DNA of 64,000 nt from Dictyostelium discoideum (Eukaryota), in assembly GCA_000004695.1 (NCBI GenBank), contig CM000151.3, positions 5,056,001 through 5,120,000 on the forward strand. Reading direction: 5' to 3'. A program made the translations under genes and the position numbers. Under the pieces are notes generated by a model that worked only from the letters and a program-made list of their open reading frames with translations, was not told where the DNA came from and made no database searches. This document shows positions 46,751 through 64,000 of the stretch, piece after piece; the stretch's first letter is position 1; each line of letters opens with the position of its first letter.

Positions 46751-46826
46751 ATGTCTCAAAGGGAATGGACAACAGCATCTACAAGCGATTTAATGTCGAA
46801 TTTATTAAACAATCATAATTCAAATA

Positions 46827-46875
<49 letters not shown>

Positions 46876-46886
46876 TAACAATAATG

Positions 46887-46943
<57 letters not shown>

Positions 46944-48003
46944 GCAATAACCAACCATTATTAAGAAATGCAAGTACAAATATCTTTTTTGGTGACGACT
47001 GGACTAAACAGAATACAGTTGGTTTATTATTAGACCCGTTAAATAGAGGTACAAGTTTTTCAAATTTATTAAAATCACCAACAATATTAGGTGATACACA
47101 ACAATCACAACAACCACAATCTCAACACACCATGCAACAATTATTTGCAAATGACCCAACATATCAACAACATCAACAAGAACAAGAACAACAACATCAA
47201 ATGATGGGAAATACAACATCACCAAAATCATTTAACCCATATGTTGGTTTATCACAACCAATGATTGTAACTAATACTGGTAATTTTAATACAACAACAA
47301 CTACTACAACTACATCAAATAATAATAATAATAATAACAATAACAATAACAATAGTAATAATAACAACAATAATAATAGTATGAATATTAATGCAAATAC
47401 ATATGAAGATGGTGAAGATGAACCAAAAACACCACCAACACCATCAAATGAACCAATTAATTGGGATATGCCAAATTATAGACAAAATACAGCATCATTC
47501 CATGCAGATATTAATATTAACAACACTACAAATTCACACCCAACTACATTATCATCGATGATGAAGAATGAAATACCAACATATAGCGGTCAAGTATCAA
47601 ATGAATATGAACAACCAACTAAATTCCAAAGAATTTCAACCTACAACGAAGAATCATTAAATGATAGACTTAGAGGCGATAACACAGGTAGCATTAATTT
47701 CTTACAAGCTGAAACATCTAAACTCAGATCACGTCAATCCTCACAAGATGATCTCGAAAGAAATAGATCATTCCAAATGACTCATTACGACACTGGTTGT
47801 GTACCAATCAGTACAGATTATTATAATAGTCTATTAACACGTTACAATAATAGACCCGAATTCTTTGAGCGTGCAAAAGAAAATCAAATTCAAGTTATCA
47901 ATAATAATAATGTTCAATTAGCTATTGATCTTCAAAATATTTATACTTCAATGAAAAAAGATATTGATGAAGAAAATAATGAATTAAAAAATTTATTAAC
48001 GTA

Positions 48004-48036
<33 letters not shown>

Positions 48037-49276
48037 AAATTAAATATTCAAATATTTATTATTATTATTTTTTATTTTTTTTATTTTTAGAATAAGAATT
48101 TTAGAACCATATGATTTAAGAAAGATTAGAGAATGTTTAGAAGGATTAAAATCACATCTTAGAATTGTTGATGTATTATATAATGAATTAAAATATGTTT
48201 TGAATAGAAAGAAACCAGAATGTTGTGCAGCATTGATTATAACACAACAACCCTATTCTCAAGTTATTTTTAGAGGAGGAAAAGGTATGGGAGAAATATT
48301 TAAGGTTCAAATGATATTTGGTGTACTTCAACCCGACAATATCTCACCAGTTTATGCAACCATAAACAAGAGTGAGAGCAATCCAAATTCAACAACCAAA
48401 AAGGAAAAACCAACTACTACACCAACATTAGAGAATGCAGAGGCAAGTTTAAACACTCAAACTTGGGAAGCCGAATTTAAGAATATCAAAGTGAACGTAT
48501 CAACTCGTATGACACCATCGAGTTTGAAATTTGTTGCAACCTACAAAGAGAAAACATCTGGTAAAACCGTTGAAAAGGATGTCGAAAGTGTGCCAGGTAG
48601 TCCGATCATTGTTATCACCAATGAGTCACAATGGGCAGAAGCAGCAGGTAAACTTTTAATAGCGGATGCATTTGCACATCGTGATGAAATCACATGGGAA
48701 ATGTTTGCAAATGTACTTCATAGTCACATTTTAACAGCAACTCATCAAACTTCAGAGATTAAAAGAAAACTTCATTCTTGGGAATTTGAATATATTCAAA
48801 AGAATTATTTCGATGGTAAGGTTACAGTTAGCAAATCAGAGTGTAAAACATTTTGGGATCGTTTTGGTCCAATCCTTCAAACTATTCATTTCAAAAGACA
48901 TATTGAACCATTATGGTATAGCGGTTTAATCTATGGTTTAATCACAAAGAGCGAATGTAATAGTTATTTAACAACACTCCCCGAGGGTTCTTTCCTCATT
49001 CGTTTTAGTGATAGTGTACCAGGTGCATTTGCTGTTGCTTATGTAACAAACGATGAAAGTGACCGTGTTAAACATTATCTAGTCAAACCTGATGATATTG
49101 GTGCAAATAAAACTTTACCAGACTTTCTTCGTGAACGTCATCAATTTAAAACACTTTATCAAGTTGATCCTTCAAAGAGATCTTTACATCCAAAATCAAA
49201 AGATGCAGAGTTAGAACCTTATTATTCAAAAAGACTTAAACAACAACAAACTAACCCTGGTTATGTTTCTTTATAA
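46751..49276 (+). CDS. STAT-family transcription factor (Dictyostelium dst-type STAT; DNA-binding + SH2 domains); 2 exons approx join(46751..48000,48091..49276), ~811 aa
   Basis: The SH2 domain is clear (WYSGLIYGLITKSECNSYLTTLPEGSFLIRFSDSVPGAFAVAYV...VKHYLV). The STAT DNA-binding and linker region lies upstream (CAALIITQQPYSQVIFRGG..., LLIADAFAHRDEITWEMFANVL). The N-terminal half is poly-N/Q-rich. The intron runs AC|GTATGT to TTTTTAG and gives T-IRILEPYDLRKIRE.... The C-terminus has candidate Tyr sites (EPYYSKR...GYVSL). Confidence 0.8.
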
Positions 49277-51774: not shown

Positions 51775-52935
51775 ATGGATAGACGTGATTATAGTAAGGA
51801 AAAATACAAATATGGAGATAATGATAAAGATAGGCGTTTTTCAAATGATAAAATAAGACATAATTTCGACGAATTTACGATGCCCTCGAATGATCGTAGA
51901 GATAGAGATAAAGACATAGATAGGTACAGAGATCGATATAGAGATAGAGATAGATATAGAGATAGAGATAGAGATAGAGATAGAGATAGAGATAGAGAAA
52001 GAGAAAGAGAAAGAGAAAGAGAAAGAGAAAGATCACGGTCACCAAATAGGAATTATAGTAGAAATAACAATAGTAGTAGTTATAATAGTAATAATAGTAG
52101 CAGTAGCTTTGATGACGGGTATAAATATAGAGATATGGATAGGGAAAGAGATAAATACAGAGAAAATAAAAGATTTGATAGTTCAAGAAATAATGAAGAT
52201 CATAGGTCATCGATTAGGCCGCTATCTTATGATGGATATGATGATGATGATTATGGACGTTCAAAGAGGAATAAAACTGAACAATATTTAAAAGAAATGG
52301 TAGCTTCAAATGGTAATCAAAAGAGAGAAAGATTAGAGGATAGTATACCTGATTTACCAGAGAATAGAGAGGCAAGAGAATTCTTAAGAAATGCTCCAAC
52401 TAAAGGTTTACATCAACCATTAGGAAAAGAAGTTAAAGTTATGCAATGTTGGAAATGTAAATTCTATGGTCATAGAGCAATAGAATGTACTCAAACTAAT
52501 CCAATTGCTGAATATGAAAAATTAAAAAGAGAAGATCCAATGATTCAATATAATGATCATGATGATTTTGGTTTTAATAATAATAAAAACAATAATATAA
52601 ATAATAATAATAATAATAATAATAATAATTTTATTCATAAAGATAGAATTAATAAAATAAATAATACTAATGATGAGAATAATGATAATAATAATAAAAT
52701 GAATAAAAGACAAAAAAAATTAAAACAGCTTCAAGAATTATTAGCAAGAGCAGAGGAAAATGAGAGAAAAAGGAAAGAGAAGAAAAGAAAAAGAAAAGAA
52801 AAGAAAAAAATCAAAGCCAGTAAAAAATCTCATCATCGTCATAGTAGCGATAGTGATAGTAGTGGTGGTGGTAGTAGTGATAGTGATAGTGATCTCAGCA
52901 AAGACGAGAGTTATTCAAGTAATGAAAGTGAATAA
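51775..52935 (+). CDS. RD/RE/RS-dipeptide-repeat protein with CCHC zinc knuckle (putative RNA-binding, SREK1IP1/ZCCHC10-like)
   Basis: Contains the repeats (RD)n(RE)n RSRSP, then a CCHC knuckle (CWKCKFYGHRAIEC), a basic K/R/E-rich coiled region and an SDSDSS tail. Single exon. Confidence 0.65.
   Translation: MDRRDYSKEKYKYGDNDKDRRFSNDKIRHNFDEFTMPSNDRRDRDKDIDRYRDRYRDRDRYRDRDRDRDRDRDRERERERERERERSRSPNRNYSRNNNSSSYNSNNSSSSFDDGYKYRDMDRERDKYRENKRFDSSRNNEDHRSSIRPLSYDGYDDDDYGRSKRNKTEQYLKEMVASNGNQKRERLEDSIPDLPENREAREFLRNAPTKGLHQPLGKEVKVMQCWKCKFYGHRAIECTQTNPIAEYEKLKREDPMIQYNDHDDFGFNNNKNNNINNNNNNNNNNFIHKDRINKINNTNDENNDNNNKMNKRQKKLKQLQELLARAEENERKRKEKKRKRKEKKKIKASKKSHHRHSSDSDSSGGGSSDSDSDLSKDESYSSNESE
51941..52032 (+). 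repeat. Coding (GATAGA/GAGAGA/GAAAGA)n hexanucleotide repeat encoding RDRDRD...RERERE
   Basis: Purine-strand tandem repeat inside CDS 51775..52935. Confidence 0.8.
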
Positions 52936-52982
<47 letters not shown>

Positions 52983-53271
52983 CCTTTGACCAAAAAAAAA
53001 AAAAGTGAAAGCGAAAGTAAAAGTAAGAGTAAGATTTTAATTAATTGTTTTTTAATTTTTATTATTATTTTTTAATTTTTAATTTTTTTTTTTTTTGTAA
53101 TGGTTATATATTGGCCCTTTGCCTGGTATATTTTATTTTTTTTATTTTTTTATTTTTTTTTATATTTTTATATTTTTTATATTTTTGCATATTAAAAAAG
53201 TAAAATATAATAATTTTTTAAAATTTTTCCATGCTACTCACAGCATAATATCATGTTAATTTTTGTGATAT

Positions 53272-53285
53272 TATTGACGTCAATA
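53272..53285. promoter_or_regulatory. Perfect 14-bp palindrome TATTGACGTCAATA containing a CRE-type bZIP site (TGACGTCA), intergenic, about 1.2 kb upstream of the PKS start
   Basis: Exact palindrome, flanked by direct GATATT repeats. Confidence 0.3.
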
Positions 53286-53511
53286 AAATTGATATTTTCA
53301 GATTCGCTTGATTAAAAATAAAAAAAATAAAAATAAAAAAAATAAAAATATTGGGATTTTTTTTTATGTTTCCCAACAGTTTTTTAAAAATTTTAAAGAC
53401 ACCACACCTTTTCCCAATAGAATTTTTGATTTTTTCCAAAAAAACAAAAAAAAAAAAAAAAAAAAAAACCAGTCATAACCCCTATTGTATGAATATTTGT
53501 GCTAGAATATG

Positions 53512-53550
<39 letters not shown>

Positions 53551-53824
53551 AAAACAAAAATAATTAATAAATAATTTGGTGAAGGGATTTTTGATAGGAA
53601 TTCGGTAGTTTCCAAAATGTTTTATCAAAAAAAAAATAAAATAAAATAAAAAAAAATTAATTAATTTCATTGGTTAGTAGTTTCTTCATTATTATTTTTT
53701 TTTTTTTTTTTTTTTTTTAATTGTTGGTAAAAAATTGATTCCCCAAAAAAAAAAAAAATTAAAAATAAAAAGTGTTAGGGAAATCTGTTTGTTTTATTTA
53801 GTTTAATAGTATGTATACAATGGG

Positions 53825-53884
<60 letters not shown>

Positions 53885-54510
53885 ATTTTATTTTATATTT
53901 TTTTTTTATTTTTTTTTTTTATTATTTTTTTTTTTATAAAAATTATATAACAACATATGTACTAGTTGTAAATTAAATTATTTGTTTAAAAATTAATTAA
54001 TTATTTATTTATTTATTTATTTATTAAAAGTTGTTTTTTTTATTTGTTCTTTTTATTTATTTTACATTTTCATTGCAAAAAATTCAAATCAAAACTTTTT
54101 TTTTTTTATAAGGTAAATAATTTTTTAAACAGTGTCAACTATTATTATTTTTTTTTCCACTTGTTCACTAAAATCTCCAAAAAAAAAAAAAAAAAAAAAA
54201 CACAAAGAGTAATTAAATCTCCAACTTACGTACGAAACATCAAAATCTTTTTTTTCATTTGTTCAAAATATTATTAAATAAAAAAAGAATAAAAAAATAA
54301 AAATTTTACTAAATTTCATTCAATATTTAAATTAGTAAATTTTTTTTCCAACTTCTGTTTTTTTTTCAAAAAAAAAAAAAAATTAAATTAATTATTTCCC
54401 AAACCTAATCTTTTTTTTTTTTTTTTCTATAATTTAAAACCAGACAAACTTTCTAAAAAAAAAAAATCCTTATTTAATAATAATAATAATTATAATAATA
54501 CTATTTCAAA

Positions 54511-54912
54511 ATGACATTTAATAATATTAAAGACGAAAATAACGATGATATTGCCATCATTGGTATGGGTTTCCGTTTTCCAGGTGGTGGTAATAATCCA
54601 GATCAATTTTGGAATCAATTATCAAATAAAATGGATGGTATTTCAAAGATTTCTCAAGAAAAATGGTCAAGATCTTTTTATGAACAAAAATATATAAATA
54701 ACGAATATGGTGGTGTCTTAAAAGATGAAGAATGGAAAAATTTTGATCCATTATTTTTTGGTATTTCACCAAAAGAAGCACCAACCATTGATCCACAACA
54801 ACGTCTTTTAATGACAACACTTTGGGAAGGTAAATAATAATAATAATTATAATTATAATAATAGTAGTATTTTTTTTTGTTAAAATTAAAAAGTTATTAA
54901 TATATATACATA

Positions 54913-54970
<58 letters not shown>

Positions 54971-57900
54971 AGCATTTGAAGATGCAAATATTAAACCATC
55001 AACATTACGTGGATCAGATACAGCAGTATTTATTGGTATGATGAATCTTGATTATCAAAGATGTCAATTCAGAGATATATCATATATTAATCCGTATACA
55101 GTTACTGGTAGTGCAGGATCATTTGTATCAAATCGTTTAAGTTTTAGTTTTGATTTACGTGGTCCATCAATGACACTTGATACAGCATGTTCATCATCAT
55201 TGAATGCAGTTTATCTTGGTTGTCAAGCTATTGCAACTGGTGATAGTAAGATGGCAATTGTTGGTGGTGTCAATGGTATTTTCGATCCAAGTATTTCAAT
55301 GACATTCTCTGGATTAAATATGTTGGGACACAAAGGTCAATGTAGATCATTCGATGCTGGTGCTGATGGTTACATCCGTAGTGAAGGTGGTGGTGTTTGT
55401 ATCCTAAAGAAATATTCAGATGCAATTAAAGATGGTGACCGTATTTATTGTGTTATCAAAGGTGGTAGTTCAAATGTTGATGGATACAATGCAAAGACCA
55501 ATATCACTCAACCATCAATGAAGGCTCAAGGTGAAAACATTGAAATTGCTTTAAAGAAATCTGGTGTAAATCCATCAGATATCTATTATATAGAAGCTCA
55601 TGGTACTGGTACACCAGTTGGTGATCCGATTGAAATTGAAGCAATATCAAGAATATTCAAAGATAATCATACACCCGATGCTCCATTGTACATTGGTTCA
55701 GTTAAAAGCAACATTGGTCATCTTGAAAGTGCTGCCGGTATTGCATCATTAATCAAAGTTGCACTCTCTTTAAAAAATCGTTCATTGGTTCCAAATATTC
55801 ATTTTGAAAAACCAAATCCATTAATCAAATTCGAAGATTGGAATATTCGTGTAGTCACTGATGAAATCCAGTTCCCAACCAATAAATTAATTAATATGGG
55901 TATTAATTGTTTTGGTCTATCTGGTTCAAATTGTCATATGATTCTAAGTGAAGCACCAATTAATTATGATGAATTATTGAAAACAACAAATAATAACTCT
56001 ACATCCTCTTCTTCAAATGATGATAAAAAAGAATATTTAATACCATTTTCAGCAAACTGTAATATTTCATTAGATAAATATATAGAGAAATTAATTTCAA
56101 ACCAATCTATTTATAAAGATACAATATTATTTAAAGATTTTGTAAAACATCAAACAATTTCAAAATCAAATTTAATAAAGAGAAAAGTTATAACCGCTTC
56201 CGATTGGGATGACTTTTTAAATAAAAGAAATGAAACTACATCAACTTCATCATTGACTTCAACAATTTCAGCACCAGCTTCATCAACTCCAGTCATTTAT
56301 GTTTTCACCGGTCAAGGCCCACAATGGAGAGATATGGGTAAAGCATTATATGAAACTGAATCAGTATTTAAAGATGCCATTGATCATTGTGATAAATTAC
56401 TTGCTAATTATTTTGGATATTCAATACTCCAAAAGTTACGTTCATTAGAAAGTGATGATTCACCAGAAATTCATCATCCAATTTTAGCACAACCAAGTAT
56501 TTTCTTAATTCAAGTTGGTTTAGTCGCACTTTATAAATCATTTGGTATTTCACCATCAATTGTAGTTGGTCATAGTTTTGGTGAAGTTTCATCCGCTTTA
56601 TTCTCTGGTGTCATCAGTTTAGAAACTGCTGTTAAAATCGTTTACTATAGAGGCTTAGCTCAAAATTTAACAATGGGAACTGGTAGATTATTATCAATTG
56701 GTATCGGTGCTGATGCTTATCTTGAAAAATGTGCTTTATTATATCCAGAAATTGAAATAGCTTGTTATAATGATCCAAATTCAATTGTTATTACTGGTTC
56801 TGAACAAGATTTGTTAGGTGCTAAATCAACACTATCAGCTGAAGGTGTTTTTTGTGCTTTCTTAGGTACACCATGTTCTTTCCACTCATCAAAACAAGAA
56901 ATGATTAAAGAAAAGATATTCAAAGATTTATCAGATTTACCAGAATCAAATGTACCATGTGTACCATTCTTTTCAACAATTACTGGTTCACAATTATCTC
57001 ATAAAGGTTTCTACAATGTTCAATACATTTATGATAATTTACGTATGCCTGTTGAATTCACCAAAGCCATTTCAAACATTTTCAATTTCATTGAAGAAAA
57101 TGAATCATACAAGAATGCAATCTTTTTAGAGATTGGTCCTCATCCAACTTTAGGTTTTTATATTCCAAAATGTAAACCATCAAATTCAACAATAACTTCA
57201 AAACCAATTATAGTATCACCATTACATAAAAAGAAAGAAGAATTAACACAATTTAAATTAGCAATTTCAACTCTATATTGTAATGGTGTTGAAATTGATT
57301 TTGCAAGTGGTCAACAATTATTACCAACTTCTTCTTCATCCGGAGGTGGCGATATATCATCATTTAAAGAGTCGACAAATAAATTACCAAGATACCAATG
57401 GGATTTTGAAGAATATTGGGATGAACCAAACCAAAGTAAAATGGTAAAACGTGGTCCATCAAATAATTTATTAGGTCATGATCAATTTGCAGGTAATACT
57501 TTAATGGAATTATTTATTGATATTAATAAATCTGCTCATCAATATCTAAAAGGTCATAAAATTAAAGGTAAATATCTTTTCCCAGGTTCTGGTTATATTG
57601 ATAATATTCTTCGTCAATTCAATGGTCAAGATATTACCATTTTCAATTTAGAATTTTCAAATCCATTCTTTTTGAAAGATGGTGTTCAACATCATTTACA
57701 AACTTCAATTACACCAACTACCAAGGGTGAATTTAAAGTTGAATTCTTTATAAAGGATAATAGAAACTCAACTAAATGGACTAAAACTTCAAATGGTCGT
57801 ATTGGATTATTCAAACATAATCCAAAGAATAATAAATTGGATATTGAAAAACTTAAAAGTCAATGTTCATTTACCACCCTTACAAAGTCTGAAGTTTACA

Positions 57901-60900
57901 ATAAGCTATTGTTATTAAGTTTACCATATGGTCCAACTTTCCAAAGAGTTGAATCATGTTCAATTGGTGATGGATGTTCATTCTTTAAACTTTCAATGTC
58001 ACCTTGTTCAGAGTTTGACAAAGATTTCTTAAATCCTTCAATTATTGATTGTGCATTCCATGGTTTATTAGTACTCAGTGAAGGTCCACAAGAGATTGTT
58101 TTCGATCGTTTACAAGATATGAAATTCTATTCTTCAAATGTACCTTCAACAAGACCTCAATTCATTTATGCCTTTGCTAAATTCGATAAAATTGTAGGAA
58201 ATTCAACTCATGGTTCTCTAGATATCATGTTAGAAGATGGTACATTATTAATTTCAATTAAAAATGTTAAATGTACATCATTAATACGTTTAAAGAAACA
58301 ATCAATTAAATATCCTTCACAAAATGTTTATTCACACCATTGGCAATCAAAAGATTCACCATTAACTTTAATTGAAAATCAATTAATTGAAGAGAAATCA
58401 TCAGAATCTAAAATTAATTTTGAAAAATTATTAAATGATAAATTATTTAATGATTATTTAATTAGATTATTAAACCAATCAATTAAATCTGAATTTATAG
58501 AATTCGATTATAAAACTTCAACAGTAGATACTTTAGAAATTGATTCAAATAATACAAAACTATTAGAAAAGATTCAATCAATTTTAAAAACAATTGATTC
58601 ATTAGATCAATCAATTGATTTAGCTAGTTTAAAACAAGTAATTATTGAAAAATCATCATCATTTAAAAAAGAAATTAATTTAATTGAAAAATCAATCAAA
58701 CGTATTGTTTCATTATTAAAAGGTGGTGAAAGTGAACATTTTTCACCAAGTAATCCAAGTTCACCAAATGACACACCAAGATATAATTCAAACAATTGTT
58801 CTTCAAAGAGTAATAATACCTCTAGTGGTGCTGATGATGATACTAACAATGAAGAAACAATTAATCAATTAAATAATGAACCATTTAATTTCTCAAATTC
58901 TCAATTCATTTCAAATCAAAATCAATTAATTTCAAAAACAATTGTAAATTCATTTGATAGATTAATTAATTCGATTGAAATTGGCGAAAAGAAATTAATT
59001 AAAATAATTGATTTATCAAGTATCTATCAAAATAATCAACTTTCAAAATTATTATTATTACAATTAAATCAATTACTAATTAATTTATCAAATAATAATA
59101 ATATTGAAATTGAATATACAATTCCATCAAATACCAAAAATATTGATTCAATTAAAGAAGAAACTAAATCGATTTCAAATTTATTAAATATTAAATATCG
59201 TAGTTTTGATTTACAAGATGATTTAGAAAGTAATGGTTATTTAAATTCAAATTATGATTTAATTATAACTTCTTTATTATTAGTTTCAACAAACTCAATT
59301 GATTCAAATGAAGTTTTATCAAAACTTTATAAATTATTATTACCAAAAGGTCAATTAATTTTAATGGAACCACCAAAGGATGTATTATCATTCAATCTTT
59401 TATTTGCAAATGATTTCAAACAATCATTAGAAATTAAAAGTGAACAAGAAATTAAATCATTAATTAGATATTGTGGTTTCACTAAAATTGAAACAAATAA
59501 TATTACCCAAGATGATGAAGAAGAACAACAACAACCACCATCAATTTTAATAGTTCAAACTGAAAAGAGAGATATTGAATCAATGTCATTGACTTTCTCA
59601 TCAGATCCAGAATCATTAAATTCTTCATATAGTAATTGTATATTCATAGTTTCAAAAGAACAAAAAGAAAATCCAACTTCATATATTCAAGAATATTTTG
59701 ATATTACTGAAGTATTCTGTGATAACACTACAATTATTGAAGCTGGTGATAGTGAATTATTAACAAAGACAATTGAATCAGGTATTGGTAAAAATGATAT
59801 TATTTTCTTTTTAGTTTCACTTGAAGAATTAACAATTGAAAATTATAAACAAGTTACAATGCAATATACATTAGTTAATCAAATACTTTTAAGAAATAAT
59901 CTTTCAACTAGATTTGCTTTATTAACTTACGATTCTCAAAATGGTGGTAAAAATTATTTAGGATCATCATTAATTGGTACTTTTAGATACTTTTTAGAAT
60001 TTCCATCATTGAATACCTTTTCAATTGATGTCGATAAAGATTCAATTGATAATCTTACATTATTCTTACGTTTAGTTGATCTATCTACAATTGGTGATAG
60101 AGAAACTATTGTTAGAAATAATAAAATTTTTGTTCAAAAGATTTTCAAAGAGCCAAAATTGTTATCACCATCAAATAATTACGAAAAGGATACAAATAAT
60201 TTATATTTGAATACAAATAGTAATTTAGATTTTTCATTCCAATGCAAAGAGAAATTACCACATGGTTCCGTCGAAATTAAAGTTATGTCAACTGGTATCA
60301 ACTATAAAGATAATCTTTTCTATAGAGGTTTATTACCACAAGAAATCTTTACAAAAGGTGATATTTATTCTCCACCATTCGGTTTAGAATGTGCTGGTTA
60401 TATTACACGTGTTGCACCAAGTGGCGTTACTCGTTTCAAAGTTGGTGATCAAGTTGTTGGTTTTGCAAGCCATTCTTTAAGTTCACTAGCTATTACTCAT
60501 CAAGATAAAATTGTATTAAAACCTGAAAATATTTCATTCAATGAAGCTGCTGCCGTTTGTGTAGTTTATGCAACAAGTTATTATTCAATTTTCCATATTG
60601 GTGCATTTATGGCCGATAAAGAATCAATCCTAGTTCATTCTGCAACTGGTGGTGTTGGTTTAGCAACTTTAAATCTTTTAAAATGGAAGAGAAATCAATT
60701 GAAAAAACATGGCAACTCTGAAATTAGTAATGATGCTTCAATTTATGCTACAGTGGGTTCTAAAGAAAAAGTCGATTATTTACAAGAGAAATATGGTGAT
60801 TTAATAACTGCAATTTACAATAGTAGAGATACTGAATATTGCGATGAAATTAAACAACAATCAGCACAAGGAGGTGTAGATTTAATTTTAAATACACTCT

Positions 60901-62465
60901 CTGGTGATTATTTATCTGCAAATTTCCGTTCACTTTCCCAAGTTGGTAGAATTATGGATTTATCAGTCACTCAATTGGTTGAAAATGATTCATTAGATTT
61001 TTCAAACTTTAAGTATCATGTTACTTACAGTACAATCGATTTAGAAAGAGCTACAACATATAATTCAAAAATCGTTAGAGATATCCTCACAGAAGTATTT
61101 GATGCAATTTCTGATGGTAGTCTTGAAAATATTCCAGTTAAAGTTTTCCCAGCAACTCAAGTTAAAACTGCGATTGAATATATTAATGAACGTGTTCATA
61201 TTGGTAAAATTGTAGTTGATTTTGAAAACTTTGAACAAGATATTCTTAAACCAGCTTTACAAGAGAAAGAAAATCCAATTCAATTGAATAAAGTTAAAAA
61301 ATTGGAACATACTTGTGATACTTTAAATAATACAATTTTAATCACTGGTCAAACTGGTATTGCTGTTCATATTTTAAAATGGATTATTTCTGGTTCTGTT
61401 TTAAATTCAAATAAATCACAACAACAAGTAACAGATTTCATAATTTTATCAAGATCATCATTAAAATGGGAACTTGAAAATTTAATTAATCAAACTAAAC
61501 ATAAATATGGTGATAGATTTAGATTCCATTATAAATCTGTAAATATTGCAGATTTAAATTCAACTCGTACTGCAATTGATCAAGTTTATTCAAGTTGTAA
61601 AAATGTTTCACCAATTAAATCAGTATTACATTTTGCAACAGTTTATGAATACATTTTACCAGAAGATATCACTCAAACCGTAATTGATAATACTCATAAT
61701 CCAAAAGCAGTCGGTGCAATTAATTTACATAATCTTTCAATTGAAAAAGATTGGAAATTAGAAAACTTTATTCTCTTTTCATCAATTGGTGCTATCATTG
61801 GTGGTTCAAAACAATGTGCATATAGTAGTGCTAATTTAGTATTGGATTCATTATCAAACTATAGAAAGAGTATTGGTCTTGCTTCAACTTCAATTAATTG
61901 GGGTGGTTTGGATGCTGGTGGTGTTGCCGCCACTGATAAATCAGTCGCAAGTTTCTTAGAGGGTCAAGGTATTTTATTGGTTTCTTTATCAAAGATTTTA
62001 GGTTGTCTTGATTCAGTTTTCCAACCATCTAATTCCCATTTATCAAACTTTATGCTTTCAAGTTTCAATATTGATAATCTTTTATCTTCTGCACCTCAAA
62101 TGAAGAGAAAAATGGGTCACCACCTAACAAATTATAAAACTTCATCTGCTAGCTCTGATGATTCATTGGGTGATTCTAGTTCTACTCAAGCAAAAGTCAT
62201 TTCTACAATCTCTGAATTATTATCAATTCATCCATCAAAATTAAATTTAGATACAAGATTAAAAGACTATGGTATTGATTCTTTATTAACAGTACAATTA
62301 AAGAATTGGATAGATAAAGAATTTACAAAGAATTTATTCACTCATTTACAATTATCATCAAGTAGTATTAATAGTATCATTCAGAGAATTAGTTCAAAAT
62401 CAACTTCAACATCTACTCCCAATCCAACTAACACCACAAAACAAACCGCAACAACAAAAACATAA
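54511..62465 (+). CDS. Type I iterative polyketide synthase (KS-AT-DH-[degenerate C-MT]-ER-KR-ACP); 2 exons approx join(54511..54829,54973..62465), ~2600 aa
   Basis: KS: [14 protein letters not shown], intron G|GTAAAT...[48 protein letters not shown]: GHSFGE. DH: HxxxGxxxxP-type region ([20 protein letters not shown]). A methyltransferase-like remnant reads [14 protein letters not shown]: [14 protein letters not shown]: [15 protein letters not shown]: [12 protein letters not shown]. The gene ends after the ACP. Confidence 0.9.
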
Positions 62466-62779
62466 GTAGTTCAAACAACTCCAACTACATTTGACACTTC
62501 TATGTTTATTCCATATTTAAAAAATTAAAAAAAAAAAATTAATAAAAAAAATTAAAAATATCTTTTAATATTAATACTTAAAAATTCTTGAACTATATTT
62601 ATTAAAAAAAAAAATTACCTTTAACCAATTTAAAAAAAAAACAAAAAAATAATAATAGTGTACAAATAAAAGAAATAATTAAAAAAAAAACAAAAAAAAT
62701 AATATTAATATTAAAGAAATGGAAAAAAAAAAAAAAAAGTGTTTAGCAAAGTTTTTTTTTTTTTTTTTTATTTGGCAAT

Positions 62780-63400
62780 GATTTTACCGAATAACGATAC
62801 GATGTTGAGTGGTAACATTATTACCAAGTTTTTCGAGATAGGTTTGGTTGTTTTTCTAAAATTTATTTAACATCTGATGTAAAACCTGCTTGTTTTTCAA
62901 CTGCTGCTTTAACAATTGCTGATACCTCTTTATCTTTGTTTTAATACTAATAAATATTCCTCTTTTTTTTTTATTGTTTAAAATAATGGTTAGTTTTTAT
63001 TAAAAAAAATTTAAAAATTTAAAACTTACTTTGATGTGTTTTAACTTGGCATGCTAATGAATAAATTTCAATACCATTGGTATTTTTCAAGAGATTATCT
63101 ATTATGATTTGAGCCAATCCATAGAATTAACTTGTTTAACCAAGAATTTTTTACCATTCTGGTACTTTTTTCAATGGTGCCATAACTTCTGGTTTATTTT
63201 GATGAACAAGGTATGCATTAACATGTGCTATTCAAGTGGCAATGTATGGTTTATTTTGATAAACTTGATCTTCCTTCTTAAAAATTTAATATTGTTAATT
63301 CTTATTAATATCATTGTGGAAATCCATTTGATCTTCAAGATATTTACTATGTTGACTAGAGATGGATTTTGAGAAAGATCACGGTCACCAAATAGGAATT
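62780..63400. other. Degenerate, non-coding mosaic region with internal short direct repeats and a 30-nt exact copy of coding sequence from 52025..52054
   Basis: There is no long ORF with a recognisable fold. Minus-strand fragments (...GIEIYSLACQVKTHQ|GTAAGT; KEVSAIVKAAVEKQAGFTSDVK*) lack a start codon. The motif ggtttattttgat(g/a)aac is repeated. The 3' end (63371..63400) is identical to part of the RD-repeat gene. Confidence 0.3.
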
Positions 63401-63567
63401 AAAATTTTAATTTTCTGGTCGTTTGTTGTGTTTTTAATTTGTTTTTGATTTTTTTTTTTTTTTAATTTTTTTTTTTTTTTTTTTTTTTTTTTGACACTTT
63501 GGTGTTTTTGATTTTTTTTTGATTTTTTTTTTTATATTTTATTTAATTTTAAATTTTTTGAAACACA

Positions 63568-64000
63568 ATGAACAAATTTTGGGAAACTGGTAGAAAGATT
63601 GTTGCAGTAGGAAGAAATTATGCACAACATGCTAAAGAATTAGGAAATGAAATTCCATCAGAACCATTCTTTTTTTTAAAACCAACTTCAAGTTATTTAC
63701 TTCAAGGAACTGGTCCAATTGAAATCCCATTAGAATCATCAGATATTCACCATGAAGTTGAATTAGGTATTGTCATTGGTAAAAAAGGTAGAGATATTGA
63801 TTTAAAATCTGCAATGGATTATGTTAGTGGTTATACATTAGCTTTAGATATGACTTCAAGAGATCAACAATCAATTGCCAAAGCTAAAGTAAGTTTTTTT
63901 TTTTTTTTTTTTTTCAAATAAAAAAAAAACTTAAAATTATCTATACTAATTTTCATTATTATTATTATTATTATTATTGACTAATAATAATAAAGTCATT
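63568..64000 (+). CDS. Fumarylacetoacetate hydrolase (FAH) domain protein, FAHD1/FAHD2-like (acylpyruvase/oxaloacetate decarboxylase family); first exon 63568..63888, continues past window end
   Basis: The sequence MNKFWETGRKIVAVGRNYAQHAKELGNEIPSEPFFFLKPTSS...HHEVELGIVIGKKGRDI matches the FAHD1 N-terminal region. The exon ends AAA|GTAAGT. Confidence 0.7.

Follow-up and report, generated by a model that had tools for sequence, protein, structure and literature searches.

An exact 31-nucleotide repeat beside pks16 of Dictyostelium discoideum as a probable scar of the tandem duplication that gave rise to pks16 and pks17

The region analysed here is a 64-kb stretch of Dictyostelium discoideum chromosome 2 (GCA_000004695.1, contig CM000151.3, forward-strand positions 5,056,001 to 5,120,000; G+C 22.9%), hereafter the window, in which the same 31 nucleotides occur both within a gene related to RP9 (retinitis pigmentosa 9, also PAP-1) and in the spacer that follows the polyketide synthase (PKS) gene pks16. 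The RP9-like gene lies on the forward strand at 51775..52935 and encodes a protein of 386 aa with a stretch of RD/RE repeats, specified by a microsatellite, and a CCHC knuckle. In BLASTP it matched the RP9 protein of Polypterus with 59% identity in residues 186-256 (76 residues; E = 6e-25), and named RP9 proteins dominate the homologues among the matches listed, these being animal RP9s with no dictyostelid orthologues among them, within a limit of 8000 candidates that low-complexity words had probably filled. The protein has the conserved central region of the RP9 family with its CCHC knuckle (...PLGKEVKVMQCW.CK.YGHR...), and Pfam returned a single weak match, to zf-CCHC, under the curated cut-off. 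The same protein is annotated in GCA_054883475.1, an independent AX4-type assembly whose corresponding locus (L001) carries pks16, ends at window position 62983 and is 99.67% identical to window 41756-62983, the differences over 21.2 kb amounting to 3 mismatches and 10 gaps.

The RP9-PKS intergenic region (53089..54510, forward strand), of which a diverged second copy is found upstream of pks17, is followed by pks16 itself (DDB_G0275069; 54511..62465, forward strand), which codes for a FAS-type PKS of 2603 aa. Its splicing, solved on the independent AX4-type locus, involves a single 132-nt intron between exon 1, which starts at 54511, and exon 2, which contains the long open reading frame (ORF) at 55038-62465. 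The product of this ORF and the C-terminal 2475 aa of AX4 Pks16 (P0186) are identical, and exon 1 matches as well. The 3' flank of pks16 (62466..62688, forward strand) is co-duplicated, as it falls within the continuous alignment of the window to the AX4-type pks17 locus (L007), which lies on the same contig as L001 (JBTAPE010000033.1). The two AX4-type units are 95.4% identical over 8.6 kb (window 54130-62688 versus L007 9650-18132), and the AX4 Pks16 and Pks17 proteins are 96.4% identical. Pks16 and Pks17 have been published as paralogues with 96% identity (PMC12828403), of which Pks16 serves as the FAS of vegetative cells and Pks17 has its role in late development (PMC12828403; PMC12625978); the identity of the window PKS with AX4 Pks16 and the value of 96.4% agree with the published figure and with the FAS roles. 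However, these two papers treat the proteins and mention neither a duplication unit nor a junction scar nor a strain-specific inversion, a statement that covers these papers, the wider literature not having been searched. Further to the right, the first exon of a gene with a fumarylacetoacetate hydrolase domain (FAHD) is situated at 63568..63891 on the forward strand (Pfam FAA_hydrolase, E = 2e-26).

The repeat was recovered with a k-mer scan that included a complexity filter; an unfiltered repeat search was swamped by A/T-rich low-complexity families. The window contains two exact occurrences of the 30-mer GAGAAAGATCACGGTCACCAAATAGGAATT, 52025-52054 and 63371-63400, both of them on the forward strand, and no further match with up to 3 mismatches was seen in the window or in 100 shuffles. 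On the right the exact identity continues for a single further base, and on the left it goes no further, giving 31 nt (52025-52055 = 63371-63401); a first-pass annotation, made from the sequence alone, had thus rightly reported an exact duplication at these positions but had put its length at 30 nt, one base short at the right end. It had also held a chance match to be very unlikely, which is borne out by the expectation from base composition, about 1e-14 occurrences, as well as by the shuffles. The flanks of the two copies are about 30% identical, which is random for the composition, and the borders of the repeat are sharp. Apart from low-complexity sequence, the 31-mer is the sole exact repeat of at least 20 nt in the window. 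Copy 1 (52025..52055, forward strand) is in frame in the RP9-like ORF (..RERSRSPNRNY..), in agreement with the earlier reading of ERSRSPNRN within the coding sequence 51775..52935. Copy 2 (63371..63401, forward strand), 11,346 nt away, lies between the PKS stop at 62465 and the FAHD start at 63568 and marks the right-hand limit of a series of exon-like fragments; its coordinates confirm the placement, given earlier, at the edge of a degenerate region between the two genes. There are two copies in the window and one or two in each of the related loci described below, always in RP9 and at the spacer site.

Related loci were obtained by a search for PKS homologues, after which the loci of the closest relatives were fetched in a synteny-anchored manner. 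They comprise three strains of the D. discoideum complex, namely ACTFIW (L002/L008), ACTFIR (L005) and ACTFIY (L006), and two outgroups, D. citrinum (L003) and D. firmibasis (L004). Both outgroups have the order STAT - X - RP9 - one PKS - GST - NAA15-like(-) - WD40(-) - KS-like(-), and in them the 31-mer core is found only inside RP9, with no scar. In ACTFIW, ACTFIR and ACTFIY two tandem PKS genes stand 0.7-2.1 kb apart and are followed by NAA15-like(-), WD40(-) and KS-like(-). The spacer between the two PKS genes of ACTFIW and ACTFIR reads, in order, the pks16 3' flank (window 62466-62676), an NAA15 pseudogene, a homologue of the 31-mer, a low-complexity stretch of 20-70 nt, a copy of the RP9-PKS intergenic region, and pks17; homology of these spacers to the window runs to 63411, with the diverged 31-mer at the position of copy 2. 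Their intergenic copies match window 53089/53158-53383, 53526-53667 and 54130-54610 at 75-86%, and the same intergenic intervals are matched in the AX4-type genome by L007 8747-8835 and 9650 onward. The ACTFIY spacer has the same order with larger deletions. The homologue of the 31-mer is GTGTAAGATCATAGTCACGAAATAGGAATTA in ACTFIW (5 changes) and GAGTAAGATAAGGGTCACGAAATAGGAATTA in ACTFIR (4 changes), and that of ACTFIY shows about 5 mismatches and a 1-nt indel. The sequences to the left and right of the short repeat are thus colinear with the second copy of a larger block, and the repeat occurs at the orthologous position in all three strains and is absent from that position in the two single-copy outgroups.

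The comparison also establishes which of the two copies came first. The ACTFIW RP9 gene contains an identical 31-mer (L008 7662), and the core TCACCAAATAGGAATTA is kept in the RP9 orthologues of D. citrinum (L003 7379) and D. firmibasis (L004 7562). Hence the RP9 copy is ancestral and copy 2 derived, as the first-pass annotation had assumed in treating the coding copy as the original. The RD/RE-coding (AGAGAT/AGAGAA)n microsatellite of RP9 (window 51900-52030) differs in length among strains and species, and the RP9 orthologues are 386 (window), 381 (L008 7442-8587), 385 (L003 7213-8370) and 351 aa (L004 7414-8469) long.

The exon-like fragments to the left of copy 2, noted earlier as orphans, are 3' exons of NAA15 on the minus strand. 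They constitute an NAA15-like pseudogene (62771..63358, minus strand), in which the terminal exons of a gene for a NatA auxiliary subunit (TPR) survive as a decayed copy together with one intron, interrupted by stop codons and shortened by two internal deletions. An alignment to the intact NAA15-like gene was obtained in L002, L003, L004, L005, L006 and L007, the parent being situated downstream of pks17 in the strains of the complex and in the AX4-type genome (L002, L005, L006, L007) and downstream of the single PKS in the outgroups (L003, L004). The parent genes bear a precomputed Pfam annotation as NatA_aux_su (PF12569), and the translated pseudogene gave no Pfam, PDB or protein-database homology match. 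Aligned with the parent of the same genome type on L007, the pseudogene has mismatches at 36 of 571 nt (6.3%) as well as several deletions, and it keeps exact runs of 47 and 56 nt; the peptides are 82-93% identical. Two minus-strand peptides that had been put forward for tracing to parent genes, GIEIYSLACQVKTHQ and KEVSAIVKAAVEKQAGFTSDVK, match the NAA15-like gene next to pks17 at 13 of 14 and 20 of 22 residues, respectively. A canonical GTAAGT...AG intron is retained in the pseudogene at the parental position, and this retention, together with the co-duplicated flanks, marks it as a DNA-level copy and not a retrocopy. With processed pseudogenes it shares the stop-ridden exon fragments of a gene expressed elsewhere; unlike them, it keeps its intron, has duplicated non-coding flanks and is without a poly(A)-defined end, and an origin as a processed pseudogene was therefore rejected. 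An early guess from the look of the peptides, that of a GST-like pseudogene, was likewise wrong, since synteny showed an NAA15-like parent. The deletions in the pseudogene measure about 109 nt and about 89 nt relative to the parent (at 62937/62938 and 63158/63159); both are also present in the ACTFIW pseudogene, and being common to it and the window they predate the split of these strains. A further deletion of about 220 nt (at 62689-62770) took the last NAA15 coding bases.

Between the pseudogene and copy 2, we noted sequence that can be related to RP9. The segments left of the 31-mer homologue align to RP9 51873-51909, with scores of 29.5 in ACTFIW, 24.5 in ACTFIR and 37 in ACTFIY (shuffle maximum 25). 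This RP9 segment, ATTTACGATGCCCTCGAATGATCGTAGAGATAGAGAT (51873..51909, forward strand), would represent the left end of the duplicated unit. In the window, the alignments of four strains and RP9 point to 63349..63370 (forward strand; ATTTACTATGT..TGACTAGAGATGGATTTT) as the duplication junction together with the decayed 5' part of the RP9 fragment, the microsatellite having collapsed. ACTFIY is the most instructive of the strains in this respect: it keeps GATCGTAGAGATAGAGA followed directly by GAAAGATCA, and its sequence GATCGTAGAGATAGA-GAAAGATCATAGG..GGAATTATAATAAT corresponds to RP9 with the 115-nt RD/RE microsatellite collapsed and with a few extra matching bases on the right. These alignments and the ACTFIY sequence suggest that the RP9 fragment was originally longer and contiguous, with copy 2 as its sole intact remnant in the window. 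The microsatellite, of variable length in RP9 itself, is wholly collapsed in the duplicated fragment. At the crossover, the NAA15 (..ATTCAAGATG..) and RP9 (..ATTTACGATG..) sequences, read directly, have an imperfect microhomology of about 10 nt.

The arrangement to the right of copy 2 differs between the AX4-type genome and the other strains. Homology of the window with the non-inverted loci of ACTFIW and ACTFIR ends at 63411|63412, 10 nt past the 31-mer, at the end of a 16-nt palindrome, AATTAAAATTTTAATT (63397..63412), and this point is the left breakpoint of an AX4-type inversion. The ancestral continuation, L002 8592 onward, is found in the AX4-type genome at L007 8716 onward, upstream of pks17, with the breakpoint region at about L007 8712-8716. 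On the contig that carries both genes, pks16 is forward and pks17 reversed, so that the two are on opposite strands in the AX4-type contig, whereas they stand head to tail in the three other strains. From the opposite strands and the continuation upstream of pks17, it follows that the AX4-type block comprising the intergenic copy, pks17, NAA15, WD40 and KS-like genes, up to FAHD, has been inverted, and since the direct arrangement is the one seen in D. citrinum, D. firmibasis and the three other strains, the inversion is derived. Its size, estimated from record coordinates, is very roughly 24 kb. In L002, L005 and L006, neither the spacer between the PKS genes nor the downstream flank of 10 kb contains the FAHD sequence; FAHD lies outside the duplication and owes its present place beside the scar to the inversion.

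Given these observations, we consider it highly probable that copy 2 was left behind as a passive scar when a tandem segmental duplication produced pks16 and pks17. The proposed event would have started from an ancestral order RP9(+) - PKS(+) - (GST) - NAA15(-), in which a block of about 11.5 kb, with its left end within RP9 (~51873) and its right end barely within an intron of the NAA15-like gene (~63349-63360), was duplicated head to tail. The first unit would thus end in a truncated 3' fragment of NAA15 (62771-63358, minus strand), and the second would begin with a promoterless RP9 fragment, its first bases corresponding to about 51873 to 52055. Collapse of the RD/RE microsatellite and loss of about 1 kb (52056 to ~53090) would have left some 50-60 nt of this fragment, including the 31 that are identical in the AX4-type genome, and in the AX4 lineage a later inversion would have turned the rest of the second unit, with the intergenic copy, pks17, NAA15 and neighbours. 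The spacing of the two copies, 11,346 nt, fits the length of the unit, about 11.5 kb (from ~51873 to ~63349), and it would be the deletion and the later inversion that make the scar look like an isolated short repeat in the window. The duplication would have taken place in the D. discoideum lineage after its split from D. citrinum and D. firmibasis. The comparisons demonstrate the homologies and their colinearity, their occurrence in several strains, the single copy of the outgroups and the location of pks16 and pks17 on opposite strands of one contig, whereas we infer the order of events, with duplication preceding deletion in place of a complex event in one step, and the lack of function of the relic.

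Truncated fragments of neighbouring genes at the ends of tandem duplication units are textbook genome evolution. The present case shares with such duplications the head-to-tail units (in the non-AX4 strains), retained introns, single-copy outgroups and a spacing equal to the unit length, as well as a first unit that closes with the 3' part of the downstream gene and a second that opens with a 5'-truncated piece of the upstream gene. It is different in that most of the upstream-gene fragment has been lost, with 31 nt remaining identical, and in that the second unit of the AX4-type genome is inverted. The possibility of a small segmental copy, raised in the first-pass annotation, was in the right direction; rather than an isolated transfer of 30 nt, however, copy 2 appears to be the core of a longer RP9 fragment (~51873-52055) that starts the second unit. 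In this manner, one ordinary event would account for both the exact repeat and the orphan exons.

Several points weigh against this scenario. The junction of the window itself, which has an 11-nt deletion, scores 17.5 against RP9 and is not significant alone. The AX4-type copy 2 is seen only in the window, as the independent AX4-type locus stops at window position 62983, and the inversion is located by its left breakpoint only. No alignment to RP9 is possible for the low-complexity piece that separates the 31-mer from the intergenic copy. Furthermore, the AX4-type copy has 0 changes in 31 positions, as against 4, 5 and at least 5 in the three other strains; with 39% G+C the 31-mer is above its surroundings, and under AT-biased mutation a faster decay would be expected, such that at a rate as in the other strains about 3.5 changes are expected and the probability of none is about 0.03.

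The non-alignable piece bears on the mechanism in particular, for on its account a duplication followed by a 1-kb deletion is indistinguishable from a complex junction formed in one step. In the latter case, template switching of the FoSTeS/MMBIR type (fork stalling and template switching/microhomology-mediated break-induced replication) would have placed the true left end near 53090, and the 50-60 nt of RP9 would have been inserted as short pieces templated by sequence about 1 kb upstream. Such a course would explain why all four strains are without 52056 to ~53090, no intermediate with a longer RP9 fragment having been seen, why the RP9 material comes in two blocks (~51873-51909 and 52025-52055) with the microsatellite between them, and why the NAA15/RP9 crossover shows microhomology, albeit imperfect. 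Indeed, a short copy of nearby DNA at a breakpoint with imperfect microhomology is also what templated insertions through FoSTeS/MMBIR or polymerase-theta end joining have in common with this junction. However, the two blocks are separated by precisely the RD/RE microsatellite, a kind of repeat that contracts readily, and ACTFIY displays it as a clean contraction (GATCGTAGAGATAGA-GAAAGATCA). In ACTFIY the match to RP9 also continues for a few bases past the right end of the 31-mer (GGAATTATAATAAT), which is what a once longer fragment should show, and at other places the duplicated non-coding DNA has often undergone deletions of 90-300 nt. Unlike typical templated insertions, the material in the window is colinear with a longer source interval and better fits the remnant of a contiguous fragment, as in ACTFIY. 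We accordingly regard the one-step course as improbable, template switching not being needed as a route for the RP9 piece.

As regards the perfect identity of copy 2, we computed the probability of 31 nt remaining unchanged at the 6.3% divergence of the adjacent pseudogene, (1-0.063)^31, as about 0.13. The short repeat is therefore compatible with the other non-coding duplicated parts, whether this value or the lower one of about 0.03 is taken, and its exact survival in the AX4-type genome is a mild anomaly; even this is overstated through ascertainment, as it was exactness alone that brought the repeat to notice.

The same anomaly could be explained by an old relic having been "refreshed" in the AX4 lineage through short-tract gene conversion from RP9, 11 kb away. 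This would be in keeping with the 0 of 31 changes in the AX4-type copy against 4-5 or more in the three other strains, with the TA that ACTFIW and ACTFIY share at positions 12-13 where AX4 and RP9 have CG, and with the activity of gene conversion at the locus, each pks17 being nearest to its own pks16. However, the adjoining flanks, GGATTTT to the left and AAATTTTAA to the right, are specific to the pseudogene and common to ACTFIW and ACTFIR, so that the tract would need to be at most 31 nt long and to have started in a 31-nt homology that was already mismatched. Positions 4 and 19 fit the simple tree (L006,(AX4,(L002,L005))) without conversion, the duplicated intergenic DNA nearest the relic has not been homogenised (73-90%), and retention by chance has a P of 0.03-0.13. 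A refreshed relic is for these reasons very unlikely.

A function for the relic was considered in the form of a minus-strand pseudogene transcript antisense to the RP9 mRNA, a source of a proto-miRNA or siRNA that would regulate a splicing-factor gene. A minus-strand transcript over 63371-63401 would, by deduction from the sequence, pair perfectly with 31 nt of the RP9 mRNA. Folding of the region is nevertheless no better than that of shuffles (z = -0.37 for the minus and -0.22 for the plus strand), with no significant fold on either strand, no Rfam match was obtained at E up to 1, and the 31-mer is not conserved in the other strains, in which 4-5 or more of its 31 positions have changed. If true, this would mean that a duplication scar had been recruited as a regulator, but we find it scarcely credible by itself; and that the AX4-type relic was either re-copied from RP9 by very short-tract conversion or kept as a source of RNA antisense to the RP9-like mRNA is, taken as one proposition, still very unlikely. 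Finally, an assembly chimera, which the first-pass annotation had also entertained, or an independent small insertion or repair patch apart from any larger event, would suit the sharp borders, the unrelated flanks within the window and the site at the edge of the degenerate region, but is discarded with near certainty since three independent assemblies (GCA_054859355.1, GCA_054859385.1 and GCA_054859205.1) carry a slightly diverged homologue at the orthologous position and both neighbours are colinear with the second duplication unit.

The tandem duplication scar, if correctly interpreted, defines where the duplicated block that yielded two FAS-type PKS genes begins and ends (~51873 and ~63349) and where its units were joined. 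This duplication is common to the D. discoideum complex and absent in D. citrinum and D. firmibasis, and a genome of the AX4-like reference type has in addition the derived inversion. These distinctions are relevant to any dating or interpretation of the functional split from the divergence of pks16 and pks17.

Within strains, the two PKS proteins resemble each other more than they do those of the other strains. AX4 Pks17 (gene at L007 10001-17912) is 96.4% identical to its own Pks16 and 94.0-94.2% identical to the ACTFIW proteins. Likewise, ACTFIY Pks17 is 94.9% identical to its own Pks16 and at most 92.8% identical to the proteins of other strains. That the Pks17 of each strain is nearer to its own Pks16, even though the scar is common to them, suggests concerted evolution, probably by gene conversion between the PKS genes.

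Other features were noted in the neighbourhood of the duplicated block. A 207-aa GST gene (GST_C) lies between the PKS and NAA15-like genes in D. citrinum (L003 18503-19213) and D. firmibasis (L004 18311-18934), and none was called at the corresponding position in the D. discoideum-complex loci. Upstream of the RP9-like gene, at window 48200-49276 and 46751-48043, the neighbours comprise a STAT-type SH2 protein and a poly-N/Q-rich ORF. The STAT orthologues carry STATa_Ig, EF-hand_12 and SH2 domains, and the gene order from STAT to PKS is kept in D. citrinum and D. firmibasis.

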